Assembly: GCA_965199855.1 (NCBI GenBank)
Contig: OZ241326.1
Span: 2,336,001 to 2,400,000 of the forward strand
Direction of reading: 5' to 3'
Source: a bacterium
GTDB taxonomy: Bacteria; UBA8248
Length of the DNA stretch: 64,000 nucleotides
A program made the position numbers and the translations under genes. Below, one piece after another: positions 27,517 through 52,192 of the stretch. How positions within the stretch are numbered: position 1 is the first letter of the stretch; every line of letters begins with the position of its first letter. Under the pieces are notes generated by a model that searched no databases, was not told the DNA's origin, and saw only the letters and a list, made by a program, of their open reading frames with translations.

Positions 27517-27972
27517 TCATTCCCTGCTTCTTCGGGCGGCGTACGCCCCGAAATACGCGCCGATGGAAGATGCCTTCCAGTCGAGGCCCGCATCTTCGGC
27601 CTTTCGCAGCAGCTCCTCGCCGCTCATGCCGCTTTCCTCGGCCAGATGAACGAGCGAGCAAATCCCGGCCCGCCCCATGCCTTTTCAGTGGACGAACACC
27701 GGGCCCTCTTTTCTCGCCTGGGCGAGCGTCTCGTGAATCTTCGAGGCCAGCCCGTCGTTCATCGCATCGACGCCCACGGGAATATGGGCGAAGTTCATGC
27801 CCAGCTCCCGCGCCGCCGCCTCCTCCGCCTCCGGCGGGAGTTCGGCTTCTCCCTCGTCGGCCAGGCGAAGGTTGACCACCGTCCTGACTCCCCGCTTCGC
27901 CAGAGACGCCAAATCCTCCCTGTCCGGCTGGCCCCCGAACGCCAGGTTCTCAGCCAGGTCGAAATAGTTCAT
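27517..27972 (-). CDS. PTP-fold/DUF442-like sulfurtransferase or phosphatase, probable selenoprotein (H-U-KGMG-R)
   Basis: GGQP, VVNLR, GPVFVH-TGA(27687-27685)-KGMGRAG matches HCx5R; frame continues to TGA at 27519-27517 (151 aa); hairpin follows. Confidence 0.8.
27652..27675 (-). promoter_or_regulatory. SECIS-like hairpin
   Basis: GGGCGGGC-CGGGATTT-GCTCGCTC (two G-U pairs), loop 17 nt after TGA. Confidence 0.55.
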
Positions 27973-28054
27973 GACGCTTTCCCTTCTCGATGATGGTCCG
28001 GGCCGCGTCGGCGGCTGGCCGGGCTGAAGGACGATTCAAGCCGAAGAAGCGACC

Positions 28055-28897
28055 TCATCCGCGCTGCGCCAGCTCCCGGCAGCGGAGCAGGCAGGTGGCC
28101 TTTTCATCCTCGCCGTCGCGCTTGTAGATTCCGATCAGGTTGTTGAGCATTCTCTCCACGATGCGCCGGGGCGGGGTTTCCTGCAAAAACCGCATGTCGA
28201 AATGATAGCCGAGTCCCCGCACGATGGCCGCGCAGTCCCCTACGCTCAGGCGCTTTCCCCGCTCGAAGGGATCCAGAAAGACGGGCTCCTCATCGGTCTG
28301 GTATTTTACGATGAAATGCCCCGGCATCCCGACCCCGTGAAACGGAAGCCCCAGCCGCGCGCCGAGAACCAGATACAGGGCGGAAAGCGATATGGGAATT
28401 CCCAGCCTGCGATTCAGCACGCGGTTGATGAAGCTGTTCCGCGCGTCGTAGTAATCCTCCCGCGCGCCGTCGAAGCGAAGCTCGCCGTGCAGATACTCCA
28501 CCACTTCGGCGACGACGGCCTCCGCCTCACGCAGACCCCGCAGACGCTCGCGCAAGTGATTCTCCATGCTCCGCAGTTCTTCCCTTTCCCTCTCCATGCT
28601 TTCGAGCGGATGGCCGAAGGCGGCCAGCAGAAAGCAGGCCTCCTCCAGACCCGCGTCCGCCGCCGAAGAGAGCGACCAATCCGCAAAGGCGGCTTCGATT
28701 TGCCCGTAATGAAAACGCAGGAGCGAGGGCGGCAGCGCCGCCTCGTTCGTCTCGCGCACTTTGAGCATCGAGAAGAGCCTGCGCCGCTCCTCGGCCGAGA
28801 AGCCGGAAACCTGGCGGTCCAAAGCCGTCGGCACGCCCGGCGATCCATCGTCGAGCAGGCGGCAGACGGCTTCGAGCTGGGAATCGCTCAACGACAA
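28055..28897 (-). CDS. SirB1-like transglutaminase-core protein
   Basis: NSFINRVLNRRLGIPISL, GVGMPGHF, LDPF, RMLNNL. Confidence 0.88.
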   Translation of the reverse strand: MSLSDSQLEAVCRLLDDGSPGVPTALDRQVSGFSAEERRRLFSMLKVRETNEAALPPSLLRFHYGQIEAAFADWSLSSAADAGLEEACFLLAAFGHPLESMEREREELRSMENHLRERLRGLREAEAVVAEVVEYLHGELRFDGAREDYYDARNSFINRVLNRRLGIPISLSALYLVLGARLGLPFHGVGMPGHFIVKYQTDEEPVFLDPFERGKRLSVGDCAAIVRGLGYHFDMRFLQETPPRRIVERMLNNLIGIYKRDGEDEKATCLLRCRELAQRG

Positions 28898-35935: not shown

Positions 35936-36568
35936 ATGAGCGCACTGAAAGAACCCATCGTCGTGGTGAAATACTCGGATTACACGTGACCGTTCTGCTA
36001 CGTCGCCACCGTGGGTGGCACGCCCGTGATCGAGGAAGACTCCGACGTGGTCGTCGAATGGGTCAGCTGGGAGGGCAGACCCCCCGGGCAGGATTTCGCC
36101 GGCTACACGCCCGAGCAGAAAAAAGAGAACTACGAGAACCACCACAAGCCTCTCGCCGAGAAATACGGCGTGCCGCTCCGCCCGGCGGGGGCGGACTACC
36201 GCACGACGGGCCTCCACATGGCCACCTACTACGCCCGGGACAAGGGAAAATTCAGGGAATTCCGGGATCGCTGCTACAAGGCGCGCTGGGTGGACGACCT
36301 CGACCTCGAGGACGCGGAGACCATCGCCGCGCTCGGCGAGGAGGTCGGCCTGGCCGGGCAGGAAATCAAGGCCGTCATCGCCGAGGGGCGCTACATCGGC
36401 GCCCTGCGCAGCCAGCGCGCCCAGGGCAAGGGTCTGGGCATTTTCGGAATCCCCACCTTCGTGGTGGAGGGCAAGCTCTTCTGGGGCAAGGACGTCATCG
36501 ACGACGTGCGCGCCGAGGTCGCCCGCGTCCGGCGGGAGCGGCTCGAAAAGCAAGAGGAAGAGGGCTAG
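35936..36568 (+). CDS. DsbA/FrnE-like probable selenoprotein (D-Y-T-U-P-F-C)
   Basis: MSALKEPIVVVKYSDYT-TGA(35987-35989)-PFCY matches DxxCPxC; GIPTFVV..FWG.D C-terminus. Confidence 0.87.
36001..36022 (+). promoter_or_regulatory. SECIS-like hairpin
   Basis: CGT(C)GCCACC-GTG-GGTGGCACG, loop 21 nt after TGA. Confidence 0.68.
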
Positions 36569-51667: not shown

Positions 51668-52192
51668 ATGAAGCGAATCCGCATCCCCGTCATCGCCGCC
51701 GCCCTGGCGGCCGCCCTGTGGGCGATACATCCGGCGACCTCCTCGGGGCTCGGGCCCGGCGCGCCCGCCCCCGAACTGAAGGGCGGCCCCTGGCTGGGCG
51801 TCGAGAAGCCCCTTCAACTGAAGGAGCTGCGCGGCAAGGTCGTGCTTCTCGACATGTGGACGTTCGGCTGAATCAACTGCGTGCGGGAGATTCCCGCGCT
51901 GCGCTCGTGGCACGAGCGCTACGGGGACAAGGGGCTGGTCGTCATCGGAAACCACGCGCCCGAGTTCGGCTTCGAGAAGAGCAGGGCGAACGTGGAGAAG
52001 GCCATCGCCAAGCTCGGCATCGCCTACCCCGTTGTGATGGACAACGGGTTCGTCAACTGGAACGCCTACGGCAACCGCTACTGGCCGACGAAATACCTGA
52101 TCGACAAGAAGGGAATCGTGCGCTTCAAGGCGATTGGCGAGGGGGGCCACGAGCGCGCCGAGGCGATGATCAAGAAGCTGCTCGCCGAGTGA
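51668..52192 (+). CDS. Exported thioredoxin-like (DipZ/TlpA-type) probable selenoprotein (U-I-N-C)
   Basis: Signal peptide; [17 protein letters not shown](51869-51871)-INC, then HAPEF, NRYWP. Confidence 0.88.
51881..51899 (+). promoter_or_regulatory. SECIS-like hairpin
   Basis: GTGCGGGA-GAT-TCCCGCGC, loop 17 nt after TGA. Confidence 0.7.

Follow-up and report, generated by a model that had tools for sequence, protein, structure and literature searches.

The window analyzed here is a 64,000-nucleotide stretch of contig OZ241326.1 (assembly GCA_965199855.1), and its minus strand carries a DUF442-like gene with an in-frame TGA. Under translation table 11, the open reading frame (ORF) at 27972..27685 closes at ...GPVFVH-TGA. 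When TGA is read as selenocysteine (Sec, U), the frame runs on as KGMGRAGICSL... for 55 codons, up to a second TGA at 27519..27517. The original prediction, which was made from the sequence of the window alone, had described both the stop after GPVFVH and the 55-codon continuation, and translation of the minus strand reproduces them. The recoded product can be aligned over residues 1-151 with P0024, a relative with Cys at this position (a Cys-form; 49% identical, E 2.4e-39). It had also been proposed that the TGA takes the place of the Cys in the phosphate-binding loop (P-loop) and that Cys orthologues would align there. This is indeed the case, because the TGA column of the alignment is occupied by Cys in 109 of 118 Cys-forms. 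The features of the locus are collected in Table 1.

Table 1. Coordinates of the predicted selenoprotein gene and associated features in the window
Feature	Position	Strand	Details	Basis
Predicted selenoprotein coding sequence	27517..27972	minus	151 residues; ATG 27972..27970, TGA stop 27519..27517	TGA=U translation
In-frame TGA, codon 96, read as Sec	27687..27685	minus		alignment with Cys-forms
Active-site loop H95-U96-K-G-M-G-R101 (U-x4-R)	27670..27690	minus		H95 and R101 invariant in alignment
Putative hairpin resembling a selenocysteine insertion sequence (SECIS)	27652..27675	minus	8-bp stem GGGCGGGC/GCUCGCUC, loop CGGGAUUU (27667..27660)	codons G100-L107
Cys105 codon TGC	27658..27660	minus	nine residues after Sec	in hairpin 3′ arm
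Candidate Shine-Dalgarno-like sequence AGAAGGGA	27980..27987	minus	ends 8 nt before ATG	read off sequence
SirB1-like / Transglut_core2 neighbor	28055..28897	minus	280 aa, TTG start	PF13369 E 9e-45

Conservation of the in-frame TGA

Relatives of the gene were sought in whole genomes with stop codons read through. Within the same GTDB family, 31 of the 36 other genomes contain a match with one TGA over approximately residues 1-150. A phylum-level set of 51 genomes yielded 58 matches from 35 genomes. One of these is a TAA-bearing fragment, and the other 57 carry TGA and span approximately residues 1-150, with identities as low as 37%. The positive genomes are confined to one family (34 of 41 besides the genome of the window), and no match was found in 10 genomes from three other families of the phylum.

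Forty-nine genes from 29 genomes (the Sec-forms) were compiled, and with locus L052 the set comprises 50 genes from 30 genomes. Every one of the 50 carries TGA as codon 96, and the residues after it read x3-[G/R/E]-R-A-G-[I/V/L]-C-S-L; in L052 Y replaces H before U, and the TGA is kept. The genes form two paralogue groups, group A with the loop U-K-G-[MLV]-G-R, to which the gene in the window belongs, and group B with the loop U-K-A-T-G-R. The ratio of nonsynonymous to synonymous differences (pN/pS) in codons 2-95, upstream of the TGA, is 0.22 in group A and 0.23 in group B. Downstream, in codons 109-148, it is 0.28 and 0.24, respectively. The similarity of these ratios indicates that the region after the TGA is translated, and TGA orthologues are thus conserved both before and after the codon, as anticipated. 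One group-A gene, L043 (G009:C5:285643-286089), has a second TGA at the Trp codon of D-F-D-W (codon 132), which points to truncation of the gene or to an error in the assembly.

Reads with TGC or TGT at codon 96 had been named as evidence against Sec. Contigs from four public runs, belonging to four studies and 95-99% alike, all keep TGA, and the change closest to it is 27682 T>C, which turns codon 97 from AAA into the synonymous AAG. The runs carrying the stretch are labelled as sponge and marine metagenomes, and no RNA run is among those listed.

A constrained hairpin downstream of the TGA

The RNA following the TGA can be folded into a SECIS-like hairpin at nucleotides +12 to +35, counted from the U of UGA, with G in its apical loop. 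The loop begins 17 nucleotides past the A of UGA, in agreement with the original prediction, and the stem includes two G-U pairs. Synonymous diversity is 0.17-0.19 in codons 97-108, whereas it is 0.39-0.57 in the flanks. Codons 100-106 read GGG-CGR-GCC-GGG-ATT-TGC-TCG in essentially all 49 genes; they vary only by an exchange of CGG and CGA, either of which pairs with U, and by a single ATA. Other conserved residues (G90, P91, V94, A111, and A125) are each encoded by three or four synonyms. All 37 distinct hairpin sequences form the seven core base pairs, and four pairs of the hairpin vary on one side only. The apex is located approximately +20 to +25 nucleotides past the UGA, similar to its position in the genes for SelD and for OsmC-like, DsbA-like, and TlpA-like selenoproteins of the same genome.

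Several observations weigh against reading codon 96 as Sec. The terminator of the gene itself is likewise TGA. The open downstream frame, taken alone, is not beyond chance, as long spurious ORFs abound in the GC-rich DNA analyzed here. The folding energy of the hairpin is not distinguished from that of shuffled sequences (z = −0.45; 57 of 200 shuffles at least as stable). Furthermore, compensatory double changes are found in 0 of 8 hairpin pairs among the 37 distinct sequences, and the covariation test is uninformative. The putative hairpin is therefore supported by conservation and by frozen synonymous sites, not by covariation. What goes beyond chance is the conservation across relatives, as opposed to the open frame or the hairpin energy taken by itself.

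Selenocysteine machinery and other Sec-containing genes

The genome was also expected to encode selA, selB, selC, and selD, and genes for selA (548.3 bits), selB (371.9 bits), selD (344 bits), and tRNA-Sec (79.4 bits) were found, all above curated cut-offs. In the phylum set, selB scores above the cut-off in 48 of 51 genomes, and the three genomes in which it was missed are 67-91% complete. The selD gene of the window's genome (G000:C1:2985603-2986568, minus strand, locus L010) has one in-frame TGA of its own (A-G-G-U-G-S-K); therefore, selenophosphate synthetase would also be a selenoprotein here. In the window, in-frame TGA codons also occur on the plus strand in a DsbA-like gene (35936-36568; Y-T-U-P-F-C) and a TlpA-like gene (51668-52192; F-G-U-I-N-C), and in both a hairpin lies about as far from the TGA as in the DUF442-like gene. 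According to BSepDB, metagenome-assembled genomes (MAGs) with record labels like those of the family members listed below (GTDB UBA8248) rank in the top ten bacteria by selenoprotein content, with 48-54 selenoprotein genes.

Existing annotation treats the TGA as a stop. A word-indexed database search retrieved ten proteins of 84-95 residues that are 59-98% identical to the query. Nine of them end with ...GPV[FY]VH and cover 63% of the query, and hence are truncated at the same place. One 95-residue form, from a Nitrospinae MAG, is named a sulfur transferase domain protein by NCBI, and a stray 36-residue ORF (P0130) corresponds to residues 116-151. If these gene calls were right, the TGA would be a true stop or be read through without Sec, and the locus would encode a 95-residue truncated protein, a pseudogene, or two small genes; the thermodynamically unexceptional hairpin would be in keeping with that. 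We nevertheless regard this explanation as highly improbable. The stop falls on the catalytic-Cys codon in all 50 genes, across two old paralogue groups and down to 37% identity, and the equally strong purifying selection downstream of it is at odds with decay. A product ending at residue 95 would also be missing the P-loop Arg, along with three helices of the confidently predicted fold (see below), and the organism uses Sec widely. It is therefore very probable, on the comparative sequence evidence, that the gene encodes a real selenoprotein with Sec at codon 96. The best explanation of the locus is that its product is a 151-residue cytoplasmic DUF442 selenoprotein, in which Sec replaces the catalytic Cys of a U-x4-R anion-binding loop.

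Two further database proteins are worth describing. P0026 (94 residues) consists of the first ~56 residues of a group-A protein joined in frame to the last ~38, without the Sec/P-loop region, and is either a deletion variant or an assembly artefact. P0139, also of 94 residues, lies outside the clade of the Sec-forms, is 44% identical to the query, and ends with GPVFVH. It could mark a second Sec lineage. Its coding DNA was not found among 4 loci retrieved; the three with an in-frame match at the relevant position are two Cys-forms and one unrelated sequence. Its cluster has no assigned name.

Fold, family, and active site

The product matches PF04273 (BLH_phosphatase, formerly DUF442) in Pfam with 38.5 bits against a cut-off of 26.1. 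Models of the dual-specificity phosphatase (DSP) type (PTP-NADK, PTP-SAK, and Y_phosphatase3) are also above their Pfam cut-offs. An exhaustive HMMER search with a threshold of E <= 0.001 retrieved 2633 relatives. The top-scoring ones are mostly single-domain proteins of ~150 residues that align over residues 1 to ~150. An AlphaFold2 model of the 151 residues, based on a 60-row alignment, has a mean predicted local distance difference test score (pLDDT) of 94.2 and a predicted template modelling score (pTM) of 0.89. In this model, strand 92-95 is followed by the U-x4-R loop and then by helix 100-114. An arsenate reductase of the low-molecular-weight protein tyrosine phosphatase (PTP)/ArsC type was considered and rejected, as no such Pfam match was found at E <= 1.

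Foldseek ranks four DUF442 structures first, the top two being 3GXH and 2F46 (21-22% identical). The family profile likewise finds 2F46 (E 1.7e-18) and 3GXG (E 4e-16), both aligned without gaps through C-x4-R. With these proteins, as with the N-terminal domain of Blh from Xylella and Agrobacterium and the DUF442 domain of the Cupriavidus pinatubonensis sulfide:quinone oxidoreductase (SQR), the query has in common the fold, the C-x4-R loop, and the ~150-residue single domain, and their catalytic Cys column is its Sec column. It differs from them by having Sec for Cys, a SECIS-like hairpin within the codons of the P-loop Arg and the first helix, and an extra Cys at +9. The original assignment to a DUF442-like family is consistent with both the PF04273 match and the ungapped alignment. 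The HCx5R motif proposed with it holds only in part: the PTP fold stands, and the x5 spacing does not, as the loop is U-x4-R like that of DUF442.

The next Foldseek matches are the classical phosphatases TpbA, Tk-PTP, SsoPTP, and VHR, at template modelling (TM) scores of 0.6-0.79. These proteins (TpbA 4R0S, VHR 1VHR, SsoPTP 2DXP/7MPC, and Tk-PTP 5Z5A) resemble the query in the overall fold and in where the nucleophile sits, at the junction of strand, loop, and helix. They differ from it in that their motif is C-x5-R, whereas the query has U-x4-R and no conserved general-acid Asp. Accordingly, the alignment to TpbA requires a one-residue gap in the loop, whereas those to 2F46 and 3GXG require none. 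Within the 66-78 loop, Asp is found at position 73 in 24 of 49 Sec-forms and at position 69 in 5 of 49, and no Asp position is dominant in the Cys-forms. The residue after the Arg is Ala in all 49 Sec-forms; in classical PTPs, Ser or Thr follows the P-loop Arg.

These comparisons bear on whether the enzyme could be a phosphatase, with the selenolate acting as the nucleophile on phosphotyrosine, a phosphoinositide, or a small phosphate ester. The PTP/DSP fold, its structural similarity to the four phosphatases, and the three DSP-type Pfam matches would all fit such an activity, and NMA1982 (2F46) is reportedly a weak phosphatase. The short loop, the variable Asp, and the Ala in place of Ser/Thr are all unfavorable to it, and the nearest relatives in both sequence and structure are DUF442 proteins rather than classical PTPs. 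A selenium-dependent phosphatase is thus very doubtful. Given the DUF442 structure and profile matches, the lack of a conserved Asp, and the Ala after the Arg, the fold is PTP-like and the family is a divergent DUF442, in which two defining features of classical phosphatases (C-x5-R and the general-acid Asp) fail.

Paralogues and genomic context

In a tree with the 118 Cys-forms, the 49 Sec-forms and P0024 form one clade (SH-aLRT 99), of which P0024 is the sole Cys member. The group-B copy in the window's genome (G000:C1:647892-648338, minus strand; locus L053 2998-3447) is 47% identical to the group-A copy. Both score above the PF04273 cut-off and no other PF04273 gene is present, so this genome has no Cys copy of DUF442. 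In another genome, G008, a fragment (G008:C10:131441-131719) is 47% identical to residues 2-101 and contains TAA. Since G008 and G019 otherwise have the group-B copy only, it looks like a decayed group-A remnant.

Group A is flanked by a SirB1-like Transglut_core2 gene, 82 nucleotides upstream on the same strand, and by a convergent ilvD. The SirB1-like gene lies beside the selenoprotein gene in 27 of 29 group-A-type loci, and the pairing holds across genera. The SirB1 match itself is weak, and no promoter-like or terminator-like site was found between the two genes. We regard it as a conserved neighbor, which provides context only, and claim no functional partnership. Cys12 and Cys222 are retained throughout 12 orthologues of the SirB1-like protein, with Cys88, Cys269, and Cys273 almost as constant.

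In group B, a gene for an OsmC-related selenoprotein (L053 3519-4079, minus strand; U-L-L-T) is located directly upstream in 18 of 20 loci. It matches NF041052 with 162.9 bits against a cut-off of 95. This gene resembles the DUF442 gene in having a UGA-Sec codon (U-x-x-T) and a hairpin about as far downstream of it, and its product differs in fold and family. It provides context only, and only for the paralogue that lies outside the window. A divergent glyoxalase-family gene is also near group B, and two metallo-beta-lactamase-fold genes are nearby in most genomes. Downstream of the group-B copy in the window's genome, there is a pair of genes for an AAA_21 ATPase and a DUF4276 protein (L053 1086-2881, minus strand). 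None of the other 19 group-B loci has this pair, which resembles an inserted island.

A putative role in sulfane-sulfur transfer

Biochemical work on Cys-form DUF442 proteins points to the transfer of sulfane sulfur. According to the accessible text of PMC5823870, Blh DUF442 moves sulfane sulfur from thiosulfate to cyanide or glutathione (GSH). The accessible part of PMC9163753 describes the DUF442 domain of the C. pinatubonensis SQR as rhodanese-type, with Cys94 as the catalytic residue, and as speeding sulfur transfer from polysulfide to GSH and from glutathione persulfide (GSSH) to sulfite. Of 18 fused relatives that were scanned, two Cys-forms, both 36% identical to the query, each contain two rhodanese domains; in one of the two, a metallo-beta-lactamase domain is present as well, an arrangement like that of persulfide dioxygenase (PDO) fusions. 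Because of the Cys-form DUF442 sulfur transferases and the rhodanese-fused relatives, we favor a selenolate that passes on sulfane sulfur.

In such a mechanism, SelB and Sec-tRNA(Sec) would bind the downstream hairpin on the translating mRNA and insert Sec at UGA96, as in the standard bacterial mechanism. The selenolate, at the N-terminus of helix 100-114 and beside Arg101, would then attack the sulfane sulfur of a donor, for which thiosulfate, glutathione persulfide, and polysulfide are candidates. An Se-S(H) enzyme adduct would form, and the sulfur could be handed to a thiol or sulfite acceptor. The net role of the enzyme may be to limit or route reactive sulfane sulfur.

A number of results count against this role. 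With the sulfur transferase model TIGR01244, the score is 54.5 bits against a cut-off of 85.85; therefore, the protein is a divergent relative and by the NCBI rule no member of TIGR01244. The Blh model NF040641 gives 63.7 bits against 625, with only profile positions 3-130 of 423 matched. No sulfur link was seen in the other 16 of the 18 fused relatives. In contrast to DUF442 in SQR and PDO settings, the query is neither fused nor adjacent to SQR or PDO genes; neither paralogue A nor paralogue B has sqr, pdo, or recognizable sulfur-oxidation genes beside it, and the selenoprotein-type SQR model finds nothing above the cut-off in the genome. The sulfane-sulfur role is thus not confirmed by genomic context. 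We consider the chances of sulfane-sulfur transfer, by analogy with the Cys-form DUF442 proteins, to be evenly balanced, and we place the combined reading, a real selenoprotein that transfers sulfane sulfur, at the same halfway point.

The residue nine positions after Sec raises the possibility of redox catalysis. Cys105 is present in all 49 Sec-forms and in P0024, but most of the 118 Cys-forms have L, F, M, or V there. The enzyme might therefore be a genuine selenoprotein that cycles through a Sec96-Cys105 selenenylsulfide and either reduces an oxyanion or a peroxide-derived substrate or acts as the redox partner of another protein. In the case of paralogue B, the OsmC-related selenoprotein would be that other protein, and the position of paralogue B directly 3′ of its gene in 18 of 20 loci is in line with this. 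Most known selenoproteins are redox enzymes, as stated in the accessible text of PMC13188914. On the other hand, the UGC codon of Cys105 forms part of the conserved hairpin stem, and hence Cys105 may be fixed for the RNA rather than for catalysis. The hydrophobic residues at 105 in the Cys-forms suggest a buried side chain, and paralogue A, the one in the window, has no redox neighbor. Redox catalysis is accordingly possible but, in our estimate, rather unlikely.

A related and more speculative proposal, which we rate as unlikely to a greater degree, is that the Sec clade represents the first natural PTP-fold enzyme combining a selenolate nucleophile with a nearby Cys (U-x8-C). It would then act as a selenenylsulfide-cycling reductase or as a selenium/sulfur relay rather than as a simple transferase. 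Such an enzyme may, for example, handle P-loop-bound oxyanions, or carry sulfane sulfur or selenium in organisms with relatives that reportedly have about 50 selenoprotein genes, and paralogue B may form a two-selenoprotein module with the adjacent OsmC-related selenoprotein.

Distribution and comparison with known selenoproteins

We scanned one genome per species, covering 185,579 species, for the motif H-U-x3-G-R-A-G-x-C-S-L; the scan is blind to other downstream motifs. It matched 81 stretches, and the 80 loci examined divide into 49 members of the family and 31 chance matches without homology. All the members are in records labelled Nitrospinota, Nitrospinaceae, Candidatus Tectomicrobia, or MAG 'bacterium'.

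The original prediction did not recognize the protein among the commonly listed bacterial selenoprotein families, and the catalogues agree with this. The 2026 catalogue of 119 prokaryotic families and subfamilies (Table 1 of PMC13188914), in its accessible part, has no entry for PF04273, TIGR01244, or a phosphatase-like protein, and the only sulfur transferases that it includes there are of the rhodanese fold. NCBIfam release 20 has no matching selenoprotein model. A literature search found no DUF442 or PTP-fold selenoprotein, although the family might still be listed in Table S2 of BSepDB or in Haft and Tolstoy 2025, both of which are cited in the accessible text of PMC13188914. The terms phosphatase, DUF442, and PF04273 do not occur in the accessible text of PMC13188914, of the deep-Sep paper (PMC12013277), or of a 2022 review (PMC9312934). 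In that of the Global Ocean Sampling (GOS) paper (PMC2398784), a PP2C fusion is the sole mention of a phosphatase. Similarly, no natural Sec form of a classical PTP/DSP was found in the literature searches or in the accessible part of the PMC13188914 catalogue.

The rhodanese-like selenoproteins (forms 1-5; PF00581, NF041203, and NF045694) provide a further comparison from that catalogue, where, as far as its accessible Table 1 goes, they are recognized largely through Cys/Sec homology. They share with the DUF442 protein a predicted sulfur-transferase role and the placing of Sec where an anion-binding loop otherwise has its active-site Cys. Their folds are unrelated, rhodanese in the one and PTP in the other, and there is no similarity in sequence, the query having no PF00581 match. 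In our assessment, the gene very probably encodes a real Sec version of a known enzyme family, one that had not been catalogued before and that uses ordinary bacterial recoding.

Implications

The selenoprotein described here would add the PTP/DSP fold, in its DUF442 branch, as a fold class to the natural selenoproteome. It would also correct a systematic mis-annotation, as the databases hold only the 84-95-residue truncations and the stray 36-residue ORF. The locus also illustrates clearly how an RNA signal and part of an active site appear to be written in the same codons (G100-L107). Both DUF442 genes of the genome would be Sec-dependent. Furthermore, P0024 and the Sec clade would form a natural Sec/Cys pair, with which it can be asked what benefit selenium brings to P-loop chemistry.

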